DNA of 36,147 nucleotides from a virus (IMGVR_UViG_2623620505_000004:1-36147); one strand, 5' to 3'; shown: positions 1 through 36,147, counted from the stretch's first letter. Notes: generated from the letters alone by a model not told the origin. Numbers and translations are program-made.

Positions 1-61
1 GGTATCCGTTCTGCTGAAGTGTCATGGCGTTGATTTTACGGTGACTCTTCGACAGTGAAAA

Positions 62-83
62 GAAAAAAGGCCGCAGAGCGGCC
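62..83 (-). terminator. Putative intrinsic terminator (GGCCGC-AGA-GCGGCC hairpin)
   Basis: Perfect 6-bp GC stem at 69-74/78-83 preceded on the plus strand by an A-run (62-68), i.e. a U-tract 3' of the hairpin on the minus strand; lies downstream of minus-strand ORF 190-585. Confidence 0.45.
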
Positions 84-189
84 ATAAACACAAACAAAAA
101 TCAACAAGTTAGATAATTATCAAAGACTTACAGACACACAAAAACACAGCCAACCACAACAAATAACAGGGGTGTGGTCACTTTGTGGA

Positions 190-585
190 TCATTCGTTCC
201 CCTCTTTTTCCTTATTTCGTTGAACGCCAATTGCGACACACGTACTAAGCAAATCTTTACATTTCTCTACGTCTTCAGACTTACGCAATTTGATACTTTT
301 TACAGACTGCGGGCTACTGTCCGTAGCACGATACATCGTTATTTCAATATCATTTCGGTTTAAGAGTCCCATAATGGCTTTTGCAACCTCCACACCCTTC
401 TTCGCGAAATCAAAGAACAGAGCAAGTTTATATGGATTTTCGACGGAAAAAACTTCAATTTTGCTAAAACCAACATCGTGTAGAGAAAAATATTGCTCAA
501 CCTCATCTCGAAGTTCTGGATCGCATACAATATCTATTCTCCAGTACTGACCTAAATGCAAATCGCTATTAACTGTTTTTTCCAC
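190..585 (-). CDS. Hypothetical protein, AT-rich cargo ORF between integrase and left end
   Basis: ORF track 190-606 has a TTG first codon; a GTG at 585-583 sits 5 nt after a perfect AAGGAGG. No ATG near the 5' end. No recognisable motif. AT-rich codon usage unlike the phage backbone. Confidence 0.5.
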   Translation of the reverse strand: MEKTVNSDLHLGQYWRIDIVCDPELRDEVEQYFSLHDVGFSKIEVFSVENPYKLALFFDFAKKGVEVAKAIMGLLNRNDIEITMYRATDSSPQSVKSIKLRKSEDVEKCKDLLSTCVAIGVQRNKEKEGNE

Positions 586-595
586 AACATCCTCC

Positions 596-1570
596 TTACC
601 CAGCAATAGGATTAAATCTCACCGCATCCTGCAAGTAATCCGGCGCAAGATGGGCATAAATCATCGTTGTCTGAATCTTTGCGTGCCCCAGAATTTTCTG
701 GAGCGTCAGAATATTGCCGCCGTTCATCATGAAATGACTGGCGAAGGTGTGGCGCAGCGCATGAACAGCCTGGCCGTCAGGAACATCAGGTGCGACCGTT
801 TTGATGACATCGCGAACCAATGGATAATCCAGCGTCGGAAACACCAGTTTCCCGCCCCGTTTTTTGATCTTTTCAAACAGGCTTTCAGAAATAGGAACGG
901 TACGGTTTTTGCTGTTCTTCGTTTTTGAAAAAGTGATTCGACAATGAAGAACACGGCGCTGCTCCAGTGCCGCTACCTCGCCCCATCGCGCCCCGGTCGA
1001 CAGAAGGATTTCGACGGCCAGCCGTTCATCGGGATTTTCAGCCAGTGCATCCAGCAACTGAACACATTCAGACTTACTCAGATATCCCATTTCACGCTCG
1101 TTAACCTTCATTCCTTTAAGGCCTTGAACGGGGTTATCGTTAAGAAAATGGCCGGATGAGATGAGTGCGGTAAACATCGCGCTTAACGCCCCAATCTCTC
1201 GATTTATGGTGCTGGGCTGTATCCCCTGCTCTATCCTGGACACACGTAGCTCGGTGAGCATCGTTGTATTAAGTTTATGCACGCACGGGTCATCCATTGC
1301 CTCACTCAAGCGCAGCAATTTAAGGCGCGTGTTATGCCCTGACTTCATTAGCTGGCCGTGGTATTTCCACCACAAGTCAATAAGCACTGACAGCGGACGG
1401 CGATCAATGGAGTTTCCTTTCCACTCATTGTTATGCTGTTGCGCCAGCACCCACCGCTCATATAAAACTGCATCCGATTTCGTTTTAAATTTTTTGCGAA
1501 TGCGTTTGCCTTTACGCCCCTCAGGACGCATGTCAAGAAGATACCCTCCCGGAATTGATTTTATGCTCAT
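596..1570 (-). CDS. int: Tyrosine integrase (P2 Int-like)
   Basis: Translation from ATG 1570-1568 begins MSIKSIPGGYLLDMRPEGRKGKRIRKKF and ends with the catalytic region HALRHTFASHF...ILGHAKIQTTMIYAHL (R-H-R-Y tyrosine recombinase box). The upstream part of the ORF-track frame (596-1720) is not used. Confidence 0.92.
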   Translation of the reverse strand: MSIKSIPGGYLLDMRPEGRKGKRIRKKFKTKSDAVLYERWVLAQQHNNEWKGNSIDRRPLSVLIDLWWKYHGQLMKSGHNTRLKLLRLSEAMDDPCVHKLNTTMLTELRVSRIEQGIQPSTINREIGALSAMFTALISSGHFLNDNPVQGLKGMKVNEREMGYLSKSECVQLLDALAENPDERLAVEILLSTGARWGEVAALEQRRVLHCRITFSKTKNSKNRTVPISESLFEKIKKRGGKLVFPTLDYPLVRDVIKTVAPDVPDGQAVHALRHTFASHFMMNGGNILTLQKILGHAKIQTTMIYAHLAPDYLQDAVRFNPIAG

Positions 1571-1619
1571 TCGTGAAGCCCCAGCGTTACAAGACCACCA
1601 TGCCCCCAGCGTTCCATGA

Positions 1620-1931
1620 TTAGCCGGGCTGTGTGCCAGTCTTGCGGGATTTTTGAGAAGACGATGTGTTTTCTGGCCCATCAGGGGAGAGAGAAGGACT
1701 GATCTGCCCAGCAGCCTCATTTGTTTCGTTACTCATCAACCACGTAGTGTATTTTTTAAATTCCGGGTGCATTGTGATTTTCAGTAAAACCTCCGTTCCC
1801 ACACCTCGAATACCAGTCTCGTATTGCTTAACCGTACCAACCGCAATACCTATTGAATCCGCGAACTTTGCCTGACTAAGCCCCTCAGATTCTCGAATTG
1901 CTTTTAGCTTCTTTGATATCTCTATTGACAT
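1620..1931 (-). CDS. C: Immunity repressor C (P2 C-like, HTH)
   Basis: ATG at 1931-1929 gives MSIEISKKLKAIRESEGLSQAKFADSIGIAVGTVKQYETG (HTH), then ...EFKKYTTWLMSN...GQISP, resembling the P2 C C-terminus as remembered. Located immediately upstream of int, divergent from cox. Confidence 0.8.
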   Translation of the reverse strand: MSIEISKKLKAIRESEGLSQAKFADSIGIAVGTVKQYETGIRGVGTEVLLKITMHPEFKKYTTWLMSNETNEAAGQISPSLSPDGPENTSSSQKSRKTGTQPG

Positions 1932-1954
1932 GGTGTGCACCTGAATACTATATT
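1925..1954 (+). promoter_or_regulatory. Candidate early promoter Pe (TTGACA-N18-TATATT) in the C/cox switch region
   Basis: TTGACA at 1925-1930 and TATATT at 1949-1954, reading toward cox. A direct repeat GGTTATCA occurs at 1955-1962 and 2015-2022 (60 bp apart), candidate C operator half-sites. Confidence 0.4.
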
Positions 1955-2026
1955 GGTTATCAGTTGAGTACCACTTGACGCTACAAAGAGCCACAAATAG
2001 CACCAGATTGAATAGGTTATCACACC

Positions 2027-2305
2027 ATGGCAAAAGTCCTTAACACATACGAACAAGCGGATTTTGAGCGTTTGGCGGCGTTCTACCCATACCGTAATGA
2101 ACATGGGCTACCGGTACTTGAAGAAAGCCTAGAGGATTATGCGAAACGCACAAATCAAAGCATTCTCGCTGTAAGAAGGCAGGCTGATAGATCGGTAATT
2201 CCCGTTACTCAAGAAGGAAGAAACACAAAACGCAAAGTAAATCTCTTCGCAATTTTCCTGAAAACCATCAGAAACGCAGAGAAATACGTGCAGATGACAA
2301 AATAA
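2027..2305 (+). CDS. cox: Cox-like excisionase / switch regulator
   Basis: 92-aa ORF first on the rightward early transcript, divergent from C. Segment ILAVRRQADRSVIPV resembles the P2 Cox HTH region as remembered; rest diverged. Confidence 0.65.
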   Translation: MAKVLNTYEQADFERLAAFYPYRNEHGLPVLEESLEDYAKRTNQSILAVRRQADRSVIPVTQEGRNTKRKVNLFAIFLKTIRNAEKYVQMTK

Positions 2306-2319
2306 CGAGGTGTCATTTT

Positions 2320-2658
2320 ATGCTGAAGCAACGCCGTAATTTTTGTACCGGAACAGAACGCCACGCTAACCGTTTCACTACCAGTGCATCACGCAGCAAC
2401 ATCCGCTACAGCCTGAGTGATACACACGCAACGCCGGATGGCTACCCAGTAAAACAAATCGGCGAGCACGCCTGGCTGATTGAGAAAGCTGGAATCGTGA
2501 TCCACAAATGCCCACGCAATCCGTTTACCGGAAACCGCATTTTTGCACTGAGCTGTGGCGACAATCAGTTCGGGCAGGATTTCACATTATACGAAGCACT
2601 TCGCACGGTTGATCGTCTGCTTCGCGGGCAAAGTTTTATTAAACAGGCTGATTTATAA
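2320..2658 (+). CDS. Hypothetical early protein
   Basis: ATG at 2320 with upstream ACGAGG; 112 aa; in the cox-A early operon. No motif recognised. Confidence 0.55.
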   Translation: MLKQRRNFCTGTERHANRFTTSASRSNIRYSLSDTHATPDGYPVKQIGEHAWLIEKAGIVIHKCPRNPFTGNRIFALSCGDNQFGQDFTLYEALRTVDRLLRGQSFIKQADL

Positions 2659-2967: not shown

Positions 2968-3210
2968 ATGGGCAAAGAATATAAAACTCTCATTAACAAA
3001 GCACTTGAGCGTTTTTATTTTCGCTTAAGTGCATCAGGCGCTCATGCTGAACGTGCGGCCCGTGACTCATTGACCAGAGCAATCCGAAGTCTGTATGACG
3101 TGGCTTTTTACGCTGATGATCTGGATGCACTTAACGAACTTTCCGAGCTGATCTGTGCCGCAGAATGCGGGGAACATATTGAACCGTATAAGCTGGGAAA
3201 TATCGCATGA
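2968..3210 (+). CDS. Hypothetical early protein
   Basis: ATG at 2968 preceded by AAAGGG; the ORF-track start at 2965 is GTG. 80 aa. Confidence 0.55.
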   Translation: MGKEYKTLINKALERFYFRLSASGAHAERAARDSLTRAIRSLYDVAFYADDLDALNELSELICAAECGEHIEPYKLGNIA

Positions 3211-7264: not shown

Positions 7265-8224
7265 ATGAAAATTTGTATCGACGACGGCTCCACCAACATC
7301 AAGCTGGCATGGACTGAGAACGGCGAACGCCGCAACGCCATCAGCCCGAACAGCTTCAAGTCGGAATGGTCTGCGCCGTTCGGTGGCTCGCAGCCTGCGA
7401 ACTACATGCTTGATGGCGTGCGCTATGGTTTTGATCCGGTCAGCGATCGCTTTGTCCAGACGACCGACACGCAATACCAGTACAGCGATGTGAATGTAAT
7501 CGCCATTCACCACGCGCTGGTCAAATCAGGCATCACACCACAGGAGGTGGATGTGGTTGTCACCCTGCCACTGAGCGAGTATTTCGACACAAACGCACAG
7601 CCGGACATGGCCAACATCAACCGCAAAAAAGCGAACGTTATGCGCCCGGTGGAGTACCAGAACGGCGAAGCATTCACTATCCGTAACGTGCGGGTTATGC
7701 CTGAATCCATTCCGGCTGGCTTTAAGGCACTGGCTGACATGAGTCCGTTTGAATCCCTGCTGATTGTGGATTTGGGCGGAACCACGCTGGATGTGGCAAA
7801 GGTTCAGGGGCAACTGGCAGGTATCAGCCAGGTGTTTTGCGATCCACACGTAGGCGTTTCTCTGATGGCCGATGCCGTACTGTCGGTGATGGCCACTAAC
7901 GGTATGCGCACCAGTCACCACATCGCCAATACCATTATCGAACATCGCCATGATGAAGCCTGGCTGCGCCAGCACATCCACAATGACGCGCATTACGACA
8001 GCCTGATGGCGGTTATTCGTGAAAAGGAAGAAACGCTGAAACAACGAGTGATCCGCGCGCTGGCGGGTTTTTCGGGTTACGGGCGGGTGATGGTTGTCGG
8101 TGGAGGGGCGGAGATTGTGGCACCCGCTATCCGCGAAGCCTGCGGAGTTAATGCGACTTTCATCGCGGACGGGGTGCCACAGTTTGCTCTGGTCAATGGT
8201 TTGTACGCAATGGACAAGGAGTAA
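7265..8224 (+). CDS. parM: ParM/StbA-like actin-type segregation ATPase
   Basis: N-terminus MKICIDDGSTNIKLAW and internal LLIVDLGGTTLDV, VMVVGGGAE align with plasmid R1 ParM (MLVFIDDGSTNIKLQW..., IIDLGGTTLDI, VIGGGAE) as remembered, along most of the length. Confidence 0.85.
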   Translation: MKICIDDGSTNIKLAWTENGERRNAISPNSFKSEWSAPFGGSQPANYMLDGVRYGFDPVSDRFVQTTDTQYQYSDVNVIAIHHALVKSGITPQEVDVVVTLPLSEYFDTNAQPDMANINRKKANVMRPVEYQNGEAFTIRNVRVMPESIPAGFKALADMSPFESLLIVDLGGTTLDVAKVQGQLAGISQVFCDPHVGVSLMADAVLSVMATNGMRTSHHIANTIIEHRHDEAWLRQHIHNDAHYDSLMAVIREKEETLKQRVIRALAGFSGYGRVMVVGGGAEIVAPAIREACGVNATFIADGVPQFALVNGLYAMDKE

Positions 8225-8228
8225 ACCA

Positions 8229-8540
8229 ATGACGACACCAACCAGACGGATAAGTCTCTATCTGAAGCCCGCCGCCGTCAAGAACGAAGGCGAAGCATGC
8301 GCCTGGCTGGACAGCCTTACACCAGAAGCCCGCAAAAGCGGCCAACGCGTGGCTTTTCTGGCCGGGCTGGCACTTCTGAAAATGAATCCGGCAGAGGCTT
8401 ACCGACTGGCTGCATGGGCTGACGATGAGGCGTTATCAGTGACACAAACCAGGGCAGAACGCCACATGTTACAGACAGCCCCCACCGCACAGATAACCAG
8501 TCAGATGGCCGGAAATATCCGGGCGTTATTTCCCGATTAG
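8229..8540 (+). CDS. parR: ParR/StbB-like centromere-binding adaptor (putative)
   Basis: ATG at 8229 after AAGGAG; 103 aa immediately downstream of parM. Segment LDSLTPEARKSGQRVAFLAGLAL resembles R1 ParR (LDSIPQGERSRLNRAALTAGLAL) as remembered. Confidence 0.6.
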   Translation: MTTPTRRISLYLKPAAVKNEGEACAWLDSLTPEARKSGQRVAFLAGLALLKMNPAEAYRLAAWADDEALSVTQTRAERHMLQTAPTAQITSQMAGNIRALFPD

Positions 8541-8670: not shown

Positions 8671-9189
8671 TTATAAAAAATAATCATCATGAGAGGAAAC
8701 ATGAAAATTATAATCTCTCAATTGGGGGATAATCCCTCTACTCCAAAGCAACGTTTTATTTAGTCCAAGTCCATCTAATTTCATCATCCTGTTGCGCAGC
8801 GCAATGAATTCATTCTTGAAGTTATCTGCAGAGATGATCTTTGGGCAAAAACAAGAATACAACTTTCTATTACTTACACCACAAGCATTGGCAAGCTCAT
8901 CCTCAAAATTGCTTGTTTGTTGAAATAGGTGGATTGTGTGTTTTTTCGCCTTTAATAGATTGAGATTATTCTTAAATCTATCAAGATTCTCAATCCTATC
9001 CGTATCAAAAACCACTATGATTTCGCTATTTTCGGTTAATGCTGGCATGTATTTATTTATATTAACATTCCATAAATTAGCAATTACTATTTTCTTAATA
9101 GGATAGCCTAGCAATGTTTTGAAATCCTGAAACAATGCTTTTTCCGTATCTCCCTCAACAAGAATAATAGCAAATTTCTTAACTGCCAT
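8671..9189 (-). CDS. Small TOPRIM-clan protein (OLD/DUF4435/RloB-like), putative nuclease partner of the upstream ATPase
   Basis: ATG at 9189 (GAGGA upstream) 2 nt after the ATPase stop; the ORF-track start at 9195 is TTG. 172 aa. AILVEGDTEK (TOPRIM glutamate) and IVVFDTDR (DxD) in the expected order. Strongly AT-rich. Confidence 0.6.
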   Translation of the reverse strand: MAVKKFAIILVEGDTEKALFQDFKTLLGYPIKKIVIANLWNVNINKYMPALTENSEIIVVFDTDRIENLDRFKNNLNLLKAKKHTIHLFQQTSNFEDELANACGVSNRKLYSCFCPKIISADNFKNEFIALRNRMMKLDGLGLNKTLLWSRGIIPQLRDYNFHVSSHDDYFL

Positions 9190-9191
9190 AA

Positions 9192-10391
9192 TCAATCCTC
9201 AAATAGCATCTCTTCGATTAATGAAACGTCAGGTATTGTTGCAAAACAGTCATTTTTTACTTTATTTAAAAGATTGCGATCATTCTTTTTATGATGTGTG
9301 GTAGCTTCAACAAAAGTGGTTACACCATCTACTTTTTTAGTAAAAGTATATGAATGCGTAGGCAGATCTAAGCTCAAGATATCATAATTATGTGTGGTGT
9401 ATATAAATTGACCATATCTGCAAAGCTTAGATATAATCAGCGTGACCATCATTTTTTCTAATTCAGTATGAGTGAAGGCCATTTTCTCATCCAAAAAGTA
9501 CACCCCACTGCAAGGGAAATTGAACTCTCGCTCTTCTATTTTATCTTCAAGCACTCCTGACAGGAGATGGGATATTTTTACTGCCTCATAAGTACCACGA
9601 GACAGTCTATCTTTATTTGTTATATCACCTTCCATATCAATAATAACTCTATCTCCATTATTGAAGACTACTGAATAACCCTGCAAATCCTCCTTTCCCT
9701 CATCATCTTTAAGAGTGAGTCCTGAGACAGATTTAACAGTATTGTCAAAGGTTTTTAATATGCTATTAAGCACATTCTTCTTAATTCGTGATATTTTATC
9801 CGTGTTCTCTTGGTTTTCAGATAGAATGAAATGCCAACCAAGAACAAAGTCCAAATCCTCTAAATATTGGGAAAATTCTTTTGAGTTAGCGTTTTCGGTT
9901 GAAAAAAATCTATTTTGACCATTTAATTCAAACTTTTGCGCATCCCACACAGCATCCAGTCTTTTGGTCGTCTTTGCGCATGATTCCGAGCTTCTTAAAT
10001 CAACAGATGCCATTGCAATTTTTTCTACAACAACAGACTCATCCATAGCCCTAAGCCAGACACCTGCCCTAAACAAACATTTTAAATGACTCTGGAAAAA
10101 GTCAACCTCTATATATGCAGGTTTTCTTTTGTCAGTAATTTTTAACGGTTCTGGATTGAAAACACCACTACTGAGAAAACGCAACACAGAAAGCATCACG
10201 CGACCAAGAGATGTTTTACCAGATGCATTAGCACCAGAAACGATGCAAACCTTTTTGAAGTAGAACTTTTCAAATCCATCAATGTACTCACCTTCCAGTG
10301 AGCTGTTGATCGGGGGTCTGGAGAAGCTTAAGTCAAGGATGCTATTTTCAAAGCAAAACAGATTATCGATTCTGATTTTTGTAAAAGCCAT
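9192..10391 (-). CDS. ABC/AAA-type ATPase (AAA_15/AAA_21-like), putative defense ATPase
   Basis: ATG at 10391 with GGTGG RBS. Walker A GANASGKTS, signature-like LSRGTYEAV, Walker B VYFLDE, H-loop-like TTHN. 399 aa, AT-rich, tightly coupled to the downstream TOPRIM gene. Confidence 0.75.
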   Translation of the reverse strand: MAFTKIRIDNLFCFENSILDLSFSRPPINSSLEGEYIDGFEKFYFKKVCIVSGANASGKTSLGRVMLSVLRFLSSGVFNPEPLKITDKRKPAYIEVDFFQSHLKCLFRAGVWLRAMDESVVVEKIAMASVDLRSSESCAKTTKRLDAVWDAQKFELNGQNRFFSTENANSKEFSQYLEDLDFVLGWHFILSENQENTDKISRIKKNVLNSILKTFDNTVKSVSGLTLKDDEGKEDLQGYSVVFNNGDRVIIDMEGDITNKDRLSRGTYEAVKISHLLSGVLEDKIEEREFNFPCSGVYFLDEKMAFTHTELEKMMVTLIISKLCRYGQFIYTTHNYDILSLDLPTHSYTFTKKVDGVTTFVEATTHHKKNDRNLLNKVKNDCFATIPDVSLIEEMLFED

Positions 10392-21610: not shown

Positions 21611-22211
21611 TTCGTTGTTACCACCATCAGCCAGCAATTTCATGCGTTGTGCCGAAGCCGTCGGAACACGCATTACAGACATTCCGGTAGACCTCAACAC
21701 GCTGTGGTCGCCGGACACCTGCCCGGTGCATCTGCTGCCTTATCTCGCCTGGGCGTTTTCCGTTGACCGCTGGGATCGCAACTGGCCGGAAGAGACAAAG
21801 CGACAGGTGATTCGTGATGCATGGCTGATACACCGACACAAAGGGACCATCAGCGCACTGCGAAGAGCCGTGGAGCCTCTCGGCTACCTGATTGAAGTAA
21901 AGGAGTGGTGGCAACTCAACGAGGAGCCGGGAACATTTCGCATTGTTGTCGGAGTACTTGATCAGGGCATCACCGATGAAATGTATCAGGAACTTGAGCG
22001 CCTTATTGCGGATGCAAAACCAGTAAGTCGCCATCTGACGGGGCTGGCGATCAGCCTGAGTGTGAACGGAAAGATTTTCGTTGGTACGGGATGCTATCAC
22101 GGCGATGCCCTGACGGTTTATCCCTACACCCCGGAGTCCATTATTGTCGAAGGGGATTATTTCCCTGCCCCGGCCATTCATTTAATTGATAATCTGAGAG
22201 TAAACGCATGA
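21603..22211 (+). CDS. I: Baseplate protein gpI
   Basis: ATG at 21603 overlapping the J stop (ATGAGTAA); about 202 aa. Confidence 0.75.
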
Positions 22212-23692
22212 CAGTGAAATACTACGCCATTCTGACTAATCAGGGCGCGGCACGACTGGCTAACGCGACGATGCTCGGCAGTAAGCTGAATCTGACGCAA
22301 ATGGCCGTTGGTGATGCAAATGGTGTGTTACCAACACCAGACCCTGCACAAACAAAACTGATTAACCAGAAACGCATTGCACCGCTGAATCTTCTGAGTA
22401 TTGACCCGAACAACCAGAACCAGATTATCGCGGAGCAAATCATCCCTGAGAACGAGGGCGGATTCTGGATCCGTGAGATTGGTCTTTATGATGATGAAGG
22501 CGTACTCATTGCGGTGGCAAACTGCCCGGAAACGTACAAACCGCAGTTGCAGGAAGGCAGTGGACGCACCCAGACTATCCGCATGATTCTGGTTGTCACG
22601 AACACCGAAGCCATCACGCTGAAAATCGACCCGTCTGTGGTTCTGGCAACCCGCAAATATGTGGATGACAAAATCTCAGAGCACGAGCAGTCACGACGTC
22701 ACCCGGACGCCTCGCTGACTGTAAAAGGTTTTACTCAGTTAAGCAGCGCAATTAACAGTGAATCAGAAACACTGGCCGCAACACCGAAAGCGGTTAAGAC
22801 TGCATATGACCTGGCTAACGGGAAATATACCGCCCAGAACGCCACCACAACACAAAAAGGGATTGTTCAGCTCAGTAGCGCCACAAACAGCACGTCTGAA
22901 ACGCTGGCAGCGACACCAAAAGCTGTTAAGGCGGTAATGGATGAAACGAGCAAGAAAGCACCATTAAACAGCCCGGCACTGACCGGAACGCCAACAACAC
23001 CAACAGCACCACAGGGGACTAATAGTACCCAGATCGCAAGCACGGCTTTCGTTATGGCCGCGATTGCCGCACTTGTAGATTCGTCACCTGATGCACTGAA
23101 CACGCTGAACGAACTGGCTGCGGCGCTGGGCAATGACCCGAATTTTGCGACCACCATGACTAACGCGCTTGCGGGTAAGCAACCGAAGGATGCCACCCTG
23201 ACGGCGCTGGCGGAGCTTGCTACATCAGCAGATAAACTCCCATATTTTACAGGGGCAGATCGTGCCGCGTTAACCGCGTTGACAAGTGTTGGACGTGCCA
23301 TTCTTAGTAAAACCAGCACTCAGGGAGTTCTTGATTACCTTGGTTTGGGAGAAGCGGCTAAAAGGAATGTAGGGACAGGTGCGAATCAGATACCTGATAT
23401 GGGTAGTTTTATGCTTTCTGCTACAGTTCCTGGATATCAAAAATTGCCATCCGGTTTAATTATTCAATGGGGGCCAATTGATGTTCCGCTGACGTCTCAG
23501 GACACAGCAACCTATTTTCCGATTGCATTTCCGAACAGATGTCTGCGGGTATTTGCGACTCAGGATTACACTCCCGGCAGTGCAAATGTTGGCTATATAG
23601 CTTGTGCCGGTTATAACCAGGACCCAGTGAAATTTATTTCCAGAGCAGGCGTACCCGGTATCGGTGCTTCATTTTTCGCATTAGGGTGTTAA
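22208..23692 (+). CDS. H: Tail fiber protein gpH (constant N-terminal part plus currently expressed variable C-terminus)
   Basis: N-terminal and central blocks ([48 protein letters not shown] repeats, [55 protein letters not shown]) are near-identical to P2 H as remembered; the C-terminus after LDYLGLGE diverges. Confidence 0.88.
22736..22930 (+). repeat. In-frame tandem repeat in gpH ([19 protein letters not shown] twice)
   Basis: Two 63-nt units at 22736-22798 and 22868-22930 encode near-identical 21-aa segments; the same repeat exists in P2 H as remembered. Confidence 0.6.
23328..23353. promoter_or_regulatory. Left recombination (gix/cix-like) crossover site inside gpH
   Basis: TTCTTGATTACCTTGGTTTGGGAGAA; its reverse complement TTCTCCCAAACCAAGG... 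shares a 14-nt core with the site at 25168-25193 in inverted orientation. Encodes LDYLGLGE at the constant/variable junction of H. Confidence 0.6.
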
Positions 23693-23718
23693 TTTCTTTT
23701 AACTATATGGAGTGAAAA

Positions 23719-24159
23719 ATGAATTACATATATTCCGCGACTACAAACTCTTTCTATCCGCTGGAGATGAAAGAGGATTACACTCAAGCTGACTCATGGC
23801 CAGATGATGCTGTTGAAGTTGATGAGCAAGTGTATATTGAGTTTTCCGGATTACCGCCGAAAGGAAAAATCCGTATCGCTGGAGAAAATGGTTTTCCTGC
23901 ATGGTCTGAAATTCCACCACCAACACATGAGGAACAGATTGCTGCAGCCGAATTGAAAAAGCAGCAATTGATTAATCAGGCCAACGATTATATGAACAGT
24001 AAACAATGGGCTGGTAAAGCGGCTATTGGTCGTCTGAAAGGTGAGGAACTGGCGCAATATAATTTGTGGCTGGATTATCTGGACGCACTGGAGCTGGTCG
24101 ATACTTCCAGTGCGCCAGATATTGAATGGCCTACTCCTCCGGCAGTTCAGGCCAGATGA
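23719..24159 (+). CDS. Tail fiber assembly protein (Tfa/gpG-like), currently expressed copy
   Basis: 146 aa immediately after H; C-terminal DYLDALELVDTSSAPDIEWPTPP matches the C-terminus of the opposite-strand copy (DYIDAVTATDTSTAPDVIWPELPE). Confidence 0.8.
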   Translation: MNYIYSATTNSFYPLEMKEDYTQADSWPDDAVEVDEQVYIEFSGLPPKGKIRIAGENGFPAWSEIPPPTHEEQIAAAELKKQQLINQANDYMNSKQWAGKAAIGRLKGEELAQYNLWLDYLDALELVDTSSAPDIEWPTPPAVQAR

Positions 24160-24727
24160 CATCCGGCGCGGTGCTGGTATCTGTTGCCGTCACCGCGTCA
24201 ATGTAATCCAGCACAGCGTTAAGCCGGGTTGTTTCTGCCTGCGTCAGTTTCCGCCCGGCCCGTAATTTCAGCTGAATCAGACTAATGGAAGCCATTGCTG
24301 CATCAATAAGTGACTGGCGCTGTGCTTCTGCCGCTTCTACTGCGGCACCGTGTTGTGCCTCAGAATCTGTCACCCATTTCTCACCATCCCATTTATCGTA
24401 TGGCGTTAACGGTGAAAGCGTGACATAACCGTCTTTGATGGCACCGATATAATCCACTGTAACAGCTGCACCATTTTCTGTTGAGTAAACAGTCTCATTG
24501 CGATGGTCTTCTTCATGGCTCCATCCCTTACCCGTAAATACTGCCACTTTTCCCGGAATGTTTTCGCCCGGGTCAATACCAGTGGAACAGGCGGGCATAC
24601 TTACACCAGTATTAATATATTCATCAGACCAGCCCGTATATTCATACGTTACTGCATCATAATAAAAACAACGCATATCGCCCGGCACTGTAGCCAGTCC
24701 ATTTTCATCAAAAATTGGGGTCATCAT
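24131..24727 (-). CDS. Alternative tail fiber assembly protein (Tfa'), opposite strand inside invertible segment
   Basis: 198 aa; convergent with and overlapping the plus-strand Tfa 3' end; conserved Tfa C-terminus; start ATG overlaps the stop of the alternative fiber cassette (ATGA). Confidence 0.75.
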   Translation of the reverse strand: MMTPIFDENGLATVPGDMRCFYYDAVTYEYTGWSDEYINTGVSMPACSTGIDPGENIPGKVAVFTGKGWSHEEDHRNETVYSTENGAAVTVDYIGAIKDGYVTLSPLTPYDKWDGEKWVTDSEAQHGAAVEAAEAQRQSLIDAAMASISLIQLKLRAGRKLTQAETTRLNAVLDYIDAVTATDTSTAPDVIWPELPEE

Positions 24728-25167
24728 TTAGCCCTCACCAGAAAGTTAAATGCAATATTTCGCGGTCTGACGGCAACAAAATTCACACCATCACCCACAG
24801 AGTTACTGGTGAAATTAAATCGTGAAAATCCTGGCTGATTTCCGGCGATACCATCATGAAAATTAATTGCGTGGCCCGCACCATCGCCTATATTCCCGGC
24901 AAACTGAGAAAAGTTTGTAGCTGCCTGCCAGCTTAATAATTCGCGACCACCGTCTACACCTCGCCCGTCATCCCAGATACGAATGAAATCACCGCGGGCT
25001 TCAGGTAATACCAGCGAAGGAAACACTTTCGCCAGCACAGGGTAATCAGTGGCAGAAAATTTCGCCCCGTTGAACTTCAAAAACACCATACTGGACCAGC
25101 TGTCGATTACAGTATTTGGCATTGCCGCGGAGGGCCAGAAGAACGGAACGCCAATAGCTGGAGTACC
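24724..25167 (-). CDS. Alternative tail fiber C-terminal cassette (start-less; fuses to gpH after inversion)
   Basis: Minus-strand frame reads through the right crossover site as ...FLNVGLGEG..., continuous with the H junction motif LGLGE; no plausible own start. Confidence 0.6.
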   Translation of the reverse strand, partial: GTPAIGVPFFWPSAAMPNTVIDSWSSMVFLKFNGAKFSATDYPVLAKVFPSLVLPEARGDFIRIWDDGRGVDGGRELLSWQAATNFSQFAGNIGDGAGHAINFHDGIAGNQPGFSRFNFTSNSVGDGVNFVAVRPRNIAFNFLVRAK

Positions 25168-25193
25168 TTCTCCCAAACCAACGTTTAAGAAAA
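25168..25193. promoter_or_regulatory. Right recombination (gix/cix-like) crossover site
   Basis: TTCTCCCAAACCAACGTTTAAGAAAA, an inverted copy of the 23328-23353 core, about 55 bp upstream of the invertase gene. Confidence 0.6.
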
Positions 25194-25248
25194 TGCAGAG
25201 ATTACGGCTAACTGGCATCATCCCCGGTTTTTATTCAGGGGATCCATC

Positions 25249-25848
25249 ATGCTTATTGGCTATGTCCGCGTATCAACAAATGACCAGAATACAGAATTGC
25301 AGCGTAACGCGCTGGAGTGCGCAGGATGTGAACTGATTTTTGAAGATAAAATCAGCGGAACGAAATCAGCCAGACCGGGATTGAAAAAACTGCTCAGAAC
25401 GCTATCAGAAGGAGATACGCTGGTTGTCTGGAAGCTGGACAGACTGGGCAGAAGTATGAAACACCTGATCACGCTTATTGAGGAATTGCGGGAAAAAGGT
25501 GTTAATTTCCGTAGTCTGACGGACAGCATTGACACATCAACACCCATGGGGCGTTTCTTTTTTCACGTCATGGGGGCTTTAGCCGAAATGGAACGTGAAT
25601 TAATTGTAGAGCGTACACTGGCCGGGCTGGCAGCAGCACGCGCACAAGGACGCATTGGCGGACGTCGCCCGAAGTTGACAAAAGAACAACACGAGCAAAT
25701 AGCGAGGCTGATTAAAAACGGTCATGACAGGAAACAACTGGCGATCATTTACGACATCGGCATATCGACGATTTATCGTTATCACCCTGTAGGCGATATA
25801 CAGGCTGAAGAAACAACCAGGCAGACTCAGGAAAATAAAAACCGCTAA
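25249..25848 (+). CDS. Serine DNA invertase (Gin/Cin/Hin/Pin family)
   Basis: MLIGYVRVSTNDQNTELQRNAL..., VVWKLDRLGRSMKHL, C-terminal HTH; 199 aa, the classic small serine recombinase/invertase architecture. Confidence 0.9.
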   Translation: MLIGYVRVSTNDQNTELQRNALECAGCELIFEDKISGTKSARPGLKKLLRTLSEGDTLVVWKLDRLGRSMKHLITLIEELREKGVNFRSLTDSIDTSTPMGRFFFHVMGALAEMERELIVERTLAGLAAARAQGRIGGRRPKLTKEQHEQIARLIKNGHDRKQLAIIYDIGISTIYRYHPVGDIQAEETTRQTQENKNR

Positions 25849-33039: not shown

Positions 33040-35178
33040 TCAGGCAATCTCGCGACCAACATCGTCATTTGCCGCAAAAGCTGATAGTAACAAATTATCA
33101 CACTCAGTTATGACATATTCTGGAATGAGATCGAATCTAGCCGGATCCAGCTGGCAGATAAACTCATTTTCGATATGATAGGTTTCATTAATAAATTTCT
33201 GAATTACAGAGTTTGTATGCTCAATACCCATTAACCTGAAAACTTGCAATTTTTCGTAGCTACTTTTGCAACTGAAATAAAGCGTGGTGAGAAAGTTTTC
33301 GCAGGTGATTTTTGCTAGCTCTACCTTATAGTTGAAATCTGGAATATGATTAATTATTTCGTGACAACCTAAATTTTCACTAACTTCTGACATTAACGAA
33401 TATTCCCCGTCGATCTTCGCCAAGCGCCTATCCTCCAGAAATTCCCGCTTATGAAAAAGATTTGAAAGCACTTGATAGGCATCCCCCAGATCATCAAGGA
33501 TTTCGTAATGACGGCGAAGATATATCAACTTAATAATATCGTCACTCACAGACTGTAGAGCCGATGTGCAGATTTGAGCAAAAGTTTTGATATCCGAATT
33601 TGAAATTGGTTGCTCTGTAATAACACCATTACTGTAGCGGAGATAAGCTGCTGAAACTTGATTATCAAATTGCTGCCTAACAGCGCGAATAGTATCGATG
33701 ATTGGCTCAACATCATGCGTCAACATCAGCACTGTTTTACTCTTAAGACAATCAGATGGCTCTCTACGAAAAAGCATTTCAAGAATCGCAAACTTCTTAT
33801 TTTTATCGAACGAGGAAATGGGATCATCCAAAATAATCAGACTTGGTTTTCTAGAAAGACATTCATACATGAAGAGCACGAGGGCAAACGCATTTCTTTC
33901 ACCGTAACTTAGATGTTGGCTACCACCAGTGACGACATCTGTATGATCTACATGATAGAGTTGTAGTCGTGGCTGTGCATCGTCTGTTATCCGCACACGG
34001 TAACGATAACCAGCATAGGATAGAAAATCATTGATATTTTTTTGGTGCTTTATAACGAGCTGGCGTACTTTATTCCGCTGCTGATTCAGTTTACCCTGAA
34101 GTGGTCCAGCGCTTGCAATTAGATCAGTCAGAGAAGTATTGAGTGCATCAACAATACGTGTGGTTTCTTCTGATTGAAGTTCAGTAAAGAAGTCCAGATT
34201 CAACTTGTAAGAGGCGAGTTTAGCAGCTACATCGTCTCCTTCTGTGAAGCTAAATCCGGAAAGCGTTTTAAGCACGGTAAGTTTATCTATTAGATCATCT
34301 GTTTGAGATTTAAGGGTGATAAGATATGTTTCATGCTGCTGCTCAAGACCATTAGGAAGGGTTGTGATTTCTTTAAGACGATCACGGGCAGAGTCAGTAA
34401 GGTAAATTCCTAAACGCTGAATGACATCAACAAGCTCCATCAAATTTTTGATGACAGCTTGGTCATATTCTACTCCAACCTGTTGAATTCGTTGTTGTTG
34501 TTGTTCGGTAGATTCACTACTGCAATAAGGACAGTACTCACCCGCAAGTTCACCAAACTCTGTTAGCCCTTTTGTCTGCCAAGCAATCCACTGCACACTT
34601 TTATTACTAGTTATCATGTTTCTGTACGGTTCAAGTGCGGCAGGGATATGAAGAAGTTTATTACCTCCAGCAAGCGCTTTCATACCCTTTGTACTTTTAC
34701 TAAGAGCAGATGCTGCAGTGACTTTAAATGCACTGGATAAAACAGTGAGATCGCTCAATAGGGTTTCCAGTTGTGTATGCTCGGTAAACACCTGACGGAT
34801 CGTCGAAATAATTAATTCTATTTCACTCTCTGTTCTGATATACGCGTCAGTTTTGATTAATATGTCGAAACTGTTGGCTACAAGCTCATCCTGACGGAAT
34901 GTGAACTGGCTAACATACTCCTCATTGAAACACATTATATTATCTAGTTGTTCCATTCCGGTCACAGAGGGCGCAACATTATCGGGGTTATTTGCCCTGA
35001 ATTTAAAAGGAAGTAATTCTGCCAAACAAGCTTCCTGCCCAGGCAAACTGAACTGCATCGCCCGAGCAATAGTGCTTTTCCCTGTACCATTCGGCGCAAA
35101 ACGAATATTCAACTTTTTTTCGGCTAGAGAAACAGTAGCAAAGTCAATGCTATTACAGTAACTAATTTCAATTTCCAT
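33040..35178 (-). CDS. Rad50/SMC-like ABC ATPase with coiled-coil CxxC hook and C-terminal HEPN-like domain (RloC/AAA_13-like); candidate single-gene defense protein
   Basis: ATG at 35178 after GAAGG. Walker A APNGTGKST near the N-terminus; long helical insert containing CPYC; signature LSYGERN, Walker B LIILDDP and H-loop LMLTHD about 450 residues later; C-terminal about 200 aa with RLMGIEH (Rx5H). AT-rich island. Confidence 0.75.
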   Translation of the reverse strand: MEIEISYCNSIDFATVSLAEKKLNIRFAPNGTGKSTIARAMQFSLPGQEACLAELLPFKFRANNPDNVAPSVTGMEQLDNIMCFNEEYVSQFTFRQDELVANSFDILIKTDAYIRTESEIELIISTIRQVFTEHTQLETLLSDLTVLSSAFKVTAASALSKSTKGMKALAGGNKLLHIPAALEPYRNMITSNKSVQWIAWQTKGLTEFGELAGEYCPYCSSESTEQQQQRIQQVGVEYDQAVIKNLMELVDVIQRLGIYLTDSARDRLKEITTLPNGLEQQHETYLITLKSQTDDLIDKLTVLKTLSGFSFTEGDDVAAKLASYKLNLDFFTELQSEETTRIVDALNTSLTDLIASAGPLQGKLNQQRNKVRQLVIKHQKNINDFLSYAGYRYRVRITDDAQPRLQLYHVDHTDVVTGGSQHLSYGERNAFALVLFMYECLSRKPSLIILDDPISSFDKNKKFAILEMLFRREPSDCLKSKTVLMLTHDVEPIIDTIRAVRQQFDNQVSAAYLRYSNGVITEQPISNSDIKTFAQICTSALQSVSDDIIKLIYLRRHYEILDDLGDAYQVLSNLFHKREFLEDRRLAKIDGEYSLMSEVSENLGCHEIINHIPDFNYKVELAKITCENFLTTLYFSCKSSYEKLQVFRLMGIEHTNSVIQKFINETYHIENEFICQLDPARFDLIPEYVITECDNLLLSAFAANDDVGREIA

Positions 35179-35876: not shown

Positions 35877-36140
35877 ATGGTCGGAGGGAATACCCGAAGG
35901 CCAGATGTGGAAAGGCCCCGGAAAACATCTCTGTTTAACCGAGGCCCTAACCGCATTACCTTGACAAGTGAAAGGTTAGCGCCTCTCCGGAAAAGGAGCA
36001 AGTGCTATGTCGCAAAAATCGCTTACGGCCATCACGTTCTGCGTGACGGCAATCCTCATCATCTGGATGTTGCACGGTTCGCTGTGCGAAATACGGATGA
36101 GCTTCTGGGGAGCGGAGTTTGCGGCGTTCTTACAGTGTAA
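35877..36140 (+). CDS. Possible mok-like overlapping frame of the hok locus
   Basis: 87-aa ORF overlapping the hok frame and ending 7 nt before the hok stop, the arrangement of mok in hok/sok loci. No sequence signature. Confidence 0.3.
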   Translation: MVGGNTRRPDVERPRKTSLFNRGPNRITLTSERLAPLRKRSKCYVAKIAYGHHVLRDGNPHHLDVARFAVRNTDELLGSGVCGVLTV

Positions 36141-36147
36141 GCAGTAA
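36007..36147 (+). CDS. Hok/Gef-family type I toxin peptide
   Basis: 46-aa ORF MSQKSLTAITFCVTAILIIWMLHGSLCEIRMSFWGAEFAAFLQCKQ: one TM helix, then the family motif SLCE and AAF near the C-terminus; preceded by a GC-rich structured leader and AAGGAG. Stop codon is the last triplet of the window. Confidence 0.7.
   Translation: MSQKSLTAITFCVTAILIIWMLHGSLCEIRMSFWGAEFAAFLQCKQ

Follow-up and report, generated by a model that had tools for sequence, protein, structure and literature searches.

A probable accessory gene in a variable slot separating the integrase from the att core of a P2-like prophage at the ihfA terminator of Escherichia coli

The 131-aa open reading frame (ORF) located between the integrase gene (int) and the att core of the prophage studied here is most reasonably regarded as a phage accessory ('moron') gene, which occupies an exchangeable cassette of a described P2 hotspot, would be expressed in lysogeny and perhaps takes part in competition between phages. 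We put the probability of this reading at about 0.6. The DNA analysed, here called the window, was a stretch of 36,147 nt of virus DNA (IMGVR_UViG_2623620505_000004:1-36147), and the features at its int-proximal end are listed in Table 1. The prophage separates btuC from ihfA, being integrated in the terminator of the latter, and the slot next to int holds three alternative, unrelated cassettes between identical flanks. The evidence for both statements, the probable expression and history of the ORF and the possible roles of its product are presented below.

Table 1 Features at the int-proximal end of the prophage (coordinates are those of the window)
Feature	Position	Strand	Remarks
Host DNA, btuC leader/promoter region	1-58	minus	btuC start codon immediately left of position 1
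att core, 25 bp, AAAGAAAAAAGGCCGCAGAGCGGCC	59-83		Identical to the host ihfA intrinsic terminator
Core hairpin GGCCGC-AGA-GCGGCC	69-83	minus	U-run 68-59, TTTTTTCTTT; 6-bp all-GC stem, 3-nt loop
P' arm of attL	84-193		Phage DNA common to all prophages at the site, whatever the cargo
Putative tandem arm-type Int sites TGTGGTCActtTGTGGATCA	173-192	plus	TGTGGTCA 173-180, TGTGGATCA 184-192
ORF, 131 aa	190-585	minus	Start GTG at 585, stop TGA 192-190
Exchangeable cargo cassette	194-608 (about)	minus	Limits: outer arm-type site and last 3-4 int codons
Shine-Dalgarno sequence AAGGAGG	597-591	minus	5 nt upstream of the ORF GTG
int, P2-family tyrosine integrase, 325 aa	596-1573	minus	Pfam Int_N and Phage_integrase
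C-type immunity repressor (HTH)	1620-1931	minus	Homologue annotated HTH in the H22, SE11 and Salmonella loci
cox-position gene	2027-2305		From the ORF list

Results

Integration site and arm-type sites

Window positions 1-83 were found to be (near-)identical in 5425 of the 5426 complete E. coli genomes. In an empty site of the MG1655 type (L001) they correspond to the spacer from the ihfA stop codon to the btuC start codon, where they align to positions 3001-3083, directly upstream of btuC, and the host-identical sequence ends at position 83. A promoter-like site was also noted on the minus strand of this host region (61 to 33). The core AAAGAAAAAAGGCCGCAGAGCGGCC occurs once in the empty site, where it follows ihfA and qualified as a Rho-independent terminator in a sequence scan, and at each of the two junctions in strain H22, which contains a complete prophage with the ORF; the both-junction evidence is that of H22, as the window stops short of the other junction. 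A 25-nt duplication 'between btuC and ihfA' has previously been reported for prophage PP_SE11-4 of strain SE11 (PMC2608844).

The ORF was present in 157 of the 5426 E. coli genomes, always beside the phage int, and was missing from the empty btuC-ihfA site. As it lies inside the core, it moves with the phage. The initial annotation had considered that the ORF might instead belong to host DNA outside the prophage, conserved in prophage-free strains, and had suggested a comparison with an empty site. On the basis of the host limit at position 83, the empty site without the ORF and the above distribution, this reading is refuted and retains practically no probability. The same annotation had placed the att core further to the left of the arm-type repeats, which was correct. 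It had also described a clean terminator hairpin past the ORF; the hairpin is indeed present, but it is not the ORF's own, being the host ihfA terminator and the att core.

The phage attP contains one copy of the core, and the matching sequence in attB comes from the host. After integration, ihfA retains a full hairpin and U-run as its predicted terminator, and the copy on the int side would end the leftward transcript of the repressor gene (C), int and the ORF and thereby shield btuC. The core hairpin, 106 nt past the ORF stop codon, is the only terminator-like site downstream of C-int-ORF on the minus strand.

Two further observations were made at this locus. The spacer between the ihfA 3' end and btuC in the empty site (L001 3001-3159) matched the Rfam sRNA family STnc540 above threshold (67 bits; gathering score, 38). 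Integration of the prophage divides this stretch at the hairpin, leaving a half in the window that reaches only 21 bits. Any RNA that stops at the terminator would, given the duplicated core, be preserved on the side of ihfA. In strain ET881, a degraded prophage (L002 3190-4084) is identical to window 1-1000 and has an intact ORF beside an N-terminally truncated integrase pseudogene.

The position of the core also bears on a 2026 survey in which the BtuC permease was counted among the auxiliary metabolic genes of P2-like viruses (PMC13100340). This listing may be a boundary artefact, since P2-like prophages integrate immediately beside btuC. The att anatomy described here, comprising base-level prophage limits, a core on the ihfA terminator and the arm sites, should help to correct prophage boundaries where btuC could pass as phage cargo.

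The P' arm contains the only two IHF-consensus matches that a pattern scan found in the window (99-111 and 118-130), and at its outer end the tandem repeats TGTGGTCActtTGTGGATCA, the sole such pair in the window and one that was contained in none of 100 shuffles. The outer repeat, TGTGGATCA, overlaps the stop codon of the ORF (190-192), and all int-linked homologues show this same overlap of the ORF stop with the outer P' arm site. Salmonella and a third lineage (L006) retain the pair despite diverged flanks. The other arm, as seen in H22, contains TGTGGACAcaTGGTGGAA (a TGTGGACA pair), with an IHF consensus between this pair and the core. Taken together, an adjacent int of the P2 family, a duplicated core and at least two direct arm repeats were found, which are sequence features of a P2-type att site.

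A slot with alternative cargo

The conserved arm (84 to ~196) was identified in 295 E. coli genomes, 157 of which have the ORF; the remaining 138 prophages lack it while possessing the same arm and int. Two types of alternative cargo were recognised: a pair of unrelated coiled-coil genes (86 of the 295 genomes, SE11 among these) and a DUF1640/CCDC90-like gene (39 genomes). All three cargo types align near-identically from the core to ~193 and again from ~609, which defines the limits of the slot. No match to known defence systems was obtained for either alternative cassette. The int-att slot has been reported as a minor defence hotspot of P2-like phages (PMC13586616), and the context considered for defence systems, that is, a variable hotspot, alternative cargo and conserved flanks, was found here. 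The two alternative cassettes represent equally uncharacterised candidates.

It had been proposed in the initial annotation that the ORF is independently acquired cargo at an int-proximal variable site. The exchange of three cassettes bears out the variable site, but the acquisition does not appear to be recent in this lineage, as the synonymous divergence (dS) of the ORF equals that of int (see below).

Gene structure, selection and probable expression

The basic description in the initial annotation, an AT-rich ORF of about 131 aa beyond int with a GTG start codon after a perfect AAGGAGG, agreed with our analysis. The GC content of the ORF is 38.6% (GC3, 34.1%), compared with 49.3% for int and 51.5% for the window. 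The same 131-aa protein has been called by PGAP in other genomes (WP_000416305/6). It is a soluble, mildly acidic protein (pI 5.3, 15 kDa) with no signal peptide or membrane segment.

Pairwise dN/dS values of 0.20-0.34 were obtained for the ORF and 0.07-0.08 for int, with similar dS, so that nonsynonymous change is 3-4 times faster in the ORF; its dN/dS was nevertheless well under 1 in every pair compared. Among int-linked homologues, the ORF protein showed 47-78% identity where Int showed 80-92%. Length is also conserved (126-133 aa across 44 aligned family members). Considering the dN/dS values, the conserved length and a confident AF2 model, the ORF is a real gene under purifying selection. 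When E. coli versions are compared with those of Salmonella, the ORF and int show equal synonymous divergence, so that the two genes have long moved as a unit and have been co-inherited since these versions split.

The arrangement of the genes points to a common transcript. A gap of 10 nt separates the int stop from the ORF start, the int stop codon TAA (598-596) falls within the Shine-Dalgarno sequence of the ORF, and no promoter-like or terminator-like site was found on the minus strand from C to the core hairpin. According to the P2 record, transcription from the promoter Pc runs through C and int toward attP. The short gap, the overlap of int stop and Shine-Dalgarno sequence, the lack of an intervening promoter or terminator and the P2 gene order imply that the ORF is probably co-transcribed with C and int. 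The ORF would then be the third gene of a leftward C-int-ORF message from the lysogenic promoter Pc, could be translated at a low level beside int given the GTG and TTG starts, and its product would hence be made in the lysogen. Start codons of the homologues are GTG, TTG or ATG. With regard to RNA features, Rfam returned nothing within the ORF or int region, and folding of the 3' UTR was no better than that of shuffles (z = -0.76).

Homologues and predicted structure

The initial annotation had treated the ORF as an orphan with no recognisable motif, and had recommended remote-homology search and structure prediction. The first part did not hold: the protein matched the phrog_14142 HMM end to end (E=3.9e-70, residues 1-128 of the 128-position profile), as did all 44 aligned relatives, this family being annotated as function unknown. 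A single-sequence search returned 13 homologue clusters from E. coli and Salmonella, and a profile search extended these to about 70 clusters (90% identity), all from Enterobacterales (Citrobacter, Enterobacter, Klebsiella, Yersinia, Pectobacterium, Pantoea and others) and all named 'hypothetical'. When 1.8 billion representative proteins were searched exhaustively with a profile, only 15 were returned. Shortened versions of the homologue also exist (clusters of 57-117 aa).

The second part was borne out, in that no match to the ORF protein was obtained in Pfam or NCBIfam scans, and no family of PADLOC-DB 2.0 was hit at E<=1. No nuclease, ATPase or toxin-like motif was detected in the protein, nor any enzyme, regulator, HTH or DNA-binding motif. 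Two AF2 models agreed with each other and showed three beta-alpha-beta units (pLDDT 80.5 and 82.1). No fold could be assigned when both models were compared with PDB and one with BFVD by Foldseek (best E 0.09-0.14, TM <0.45), and a profile search of PDB sequences gave noise alone (E >= 0.38). By tblastn, none of the 50,697 deposited phage genomes in INPHARED, that is, no isolated phage, encodes the ORF protein. Megablast with window 1-2400 gave nothing useful, and a literature search with the RefSeq accessions and the PHROG identifier found nothing.

Two candidate assignments were rejected. One 128-aa relative, once among the cluster members read, carried the name PD-(D/E)XK nuclease; the Foldseek matches in PDB contained no nuclease (best E 0.09-0.14, TM <0.4), and there was no Pfam match. 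A conserved His/Cys metal site is unlikely, because C45 is replaced by Val in the window protein and C116 by Leu in the 128-aa subfamily.

The genomic neighbourhoods of the homologues fall into two patterns. All close homologues (at least 47% identity) show the order repressor, int, a gap of 10-11 nt, ORF, arm repeats and hairpin core. Members of the 128-aa subfamily (~30-39% identity) are situated at the opposite end of the prophage, unlinked to int, as the first gene inward from arm-type repeats and a host-terminator core (raiA or dsbB), and are convergent with hok or, in another group, with ogr. On a circular map, all versions lie in the interval from ogr/hok through attP to int; in the phage of the window, attP is between hok and the ORF. 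The raiA and dsbB cores are hairpins of the form ACGC(G/T)CCTTCGGGCGCG followed by a T-run (L050/L051 5600-5760; L041 4860-5000), and these prophages have P2-type arm repeats (TCCACA...CCACA) 45-65 bp inside the core. A scan of GTDB with one genome per species returned only a truncated remnant, in Symbiopectobacterium sp. RP (L010 4971-5544). This homologue lies 8 nt from a convergent ogr, with no att between the two and with transposase-like ORFs around, and the locus appears to be a rearranged prophage remnant.

Other genes of the prophage

Several other regions of the window were noteworthy. A two-gene AbiL-like module on the minus strand (8671-10391) occupies the hotspot between gpA and the portal gene and consists of a 399-aa AAA_15 ATPase (PADLOC AbiLi, E=1e-27) and a 174-aa OLD-like TOPRIM protein with weak AbiLii/GajA matches. 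Between gpD and ogr, a 712-aa AAA_13 ATPase (33040-35178, minus strand) corresponds end to end to the PADLOC candidate PDC-S06 (E=2e-277). The final gene ahead of the other att arm encodes a Hok/Gef toxin (36007-36147, plus strand); its stop codon forms the end of the window. The pairing of the ORF with hok around attP is conserved on the circular map (128-aa subfamily, L050-L052 6534-6674).

A resolvase-family DNA invertase gene (25249-25848, plus strand; Pfam Resolvase, E=6e-52, with HTH_7) adjoins oppositely oriented ORFs (24131-25221, minus strand) and lies downstream of long ORFs (22208-24159). The equivalent region of H22 contains tail-fibre and tail-fibre-assembly genes in both orientations, and the arrangement looks like an invertible host-range switch. 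Two ORFs on the plus strand (7265-8224, encoding 319 aa, and 8094-8540), downstream of the 940-aa gpA-position ORF, occupy positions syntenic with the annotated ParM and partition-protein genes of H22, an assignment made by synteny alone; for a P2-like phage that integrates, genes of this kind are unusual.

Discussion

Within the reading of the ORF as a lysogeny-expressed accessory gene, the role that we favour, tentatively and at less than even odds, is that of a factor in phage-phage conflict, acting in defence or superinfection exclusion. It is preferred because of the location of the gene, the neighbouring cargo and the rate of evolution. The other variable slots of the prophage contain the AbiL-like pair (A-Q), PDC-S06 (D-ogr) and hok (other att arm). 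Some results speak against this role, namely the lack of a PADLOC match, the observation that both alternative cassettes likewise do not appear to be known defence genes, and a machine-learning screen in which no more than 15-32% of unknown P2 genes were scored as antiviral (PMC13586616). The broader explanation also meets with some difficulty: the 128-aa subfamily is unlinked to int, so that the operon link would not be universal in the family, and no phage in INPHARED encodes the protein. A related proposal, that the product is a new single-gene anti-phage exclusion protein, is held with similar reserve. If the ORF does protect lysogens, the P2 hotspot repertoire would gain a small system that consists of one gene and has an unseen fold, and the little-studied int-att slot would be a productive place to look.

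Other roles should also be considered. A lysogenic-conversion or host-physiology factor (stress, metabolism or colonisation), with no bearing on phage sensitivity, would follow the same expression logic as the C-int-ORF reading, and a soluble acidic protein without nuclease, ATPase or toxin-like motif would suit it. Host-directed functions are a known theme among att-adjacent morons, and in phiCTX the ctx gene adjoins attP. We consider such a role unlikely, although not to be neglected, as the protein has no signal peptide, membrane segment, enzyme motif or regulator motif, the remaining cargo of the prophage is of the defence type, and a nonsynonymous rate 3-4 times that of int fits conflict better than housekeeping. 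The ORF product is also small, acidic and fast-evolving, with a novel fold, and is encoded by a single gene, all of which are typical of anti-defence proteins; however, an inhibitor of immune systems, be they of the host or of a rival, which would benefit the phage or its lysogen, seems distinctly improbable here. The place behind the lysogenic C-int unit is unusual for factors needed at the start of infection, a pI of 5.3 is only mildly acidic, unlike that of DNA mimics, and no homology to known anti-defence proteins was found in BFVD or PDB.

The persistent proximity to arm-type sites raises the question of whether the protein modulates site-specific recombination, acting on Int or on the arm sites. 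Besides the overlap between ORF stop and outer P' arm site that all int-linked homologues share, the 128-aa subfamily is likewise found beside arm repeats at the raiA and dsbB cores, and synonymous divergence equals that of int. In this case phrog_14142 would be a new-fold, att-tied factor made from the int message and acting on Int, the arm sites or the integrated or excised state, which would, for example, stabilise lysogeny or sense excision; it would explain the position as first gene next to the arm repeats in two lineages and on either side of attP. There is little chance that this is correct, since unrelated cargo takes the place of the ORF in 138 of the 295 prophages that share the arm and int, the phage has its own cox (2027-2305), the protein is acidic with no DNA-binding motif, and positions beside att simply tolerate cargo. 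An excisionase of the Cox/Apl/Xis type was rejected on the basis of the pI of 5.3, the lack of HTH, the absence from 138 of 295 prophages and the separate cox-position gene. Finally, truncated versions (the 57-117 aa clusters) and the survival of the ORF in the degraded ET881 prophage would be compatible with a neutral passenger or decaying remnant. This has a very slim chance of being right given that every pair gives a dN/dS well below 1, full length is kept across genera and the fold is predicted with confidence.

Comparison with known systems

The genes old, tin and fun(Z) of P2 are exclusion genes expressed in the lysogen, which are AT-rich, non-essential, located in variable slots and active against other phages. 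The ORF resembles them in being AT-rich cargo in a variable slot of a P2-like phage. It differs in the slot occupied and has no sequence or fold similarity to them, and its exclusion activity is only putative.

The att site was compared with attP of P2 (AF063097), whose P' arm contains TGTGGACActgTGTGGACA on the same strand relative to int. The start-to-start distance of the repeats is 11 bp in both P2 and the window, and the distance from the first repeat to the core is 88 bp in P2 and 89 bp in the window. The P2 arm-type consensus is tgTGGaCa (PMC3448106), and TGTGGTCA of the window P' arm is also contained in the P arm of P2. The two integrases share 46% identity over their full length (E=2e-111). 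In sequence, strand, spacing and distance, the repeats at 173-192 therefore match P2-type P' arm Int sites, and may be taken as predicted sites of this type, as their resemblance had led the initial annotation to suggest. There are also clear differences. In P2, int abuts attP, as previously stated and confirmed by the P2 annotation, and the final int codons contain the P' arm repeats, whereas a 415-bp cassette separates int from the repeats in the window. The core of the window is the ihfA terminator hairpin and differs in sequence from that of P2, and the second repeat, TGTGGATCA, has one base more than the P2 type.

The closest parallel for the slot itself is the P2 int-att hotspot (Nucleic Acids Res 2026, PMC13586616), a report that extends the P2/P4 hotspots (Rousset et al. 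2022, PMC9122126). Both occupy the same position between int and att, and both have exchangeable cargo and conserved flanks and are mobilised inside the core. In contrast to the hotspot, the cargo of the window slot matches no known defence system, and its limits are set to the base. The prophage PP_SE11-4 (PMC2608844) has the same integration site, 25-nt duplication, arm and int family as the prophage of the window, and carries a two-gene cassette (WP_000668483 and WP_000829983) where the window carries the ORF.
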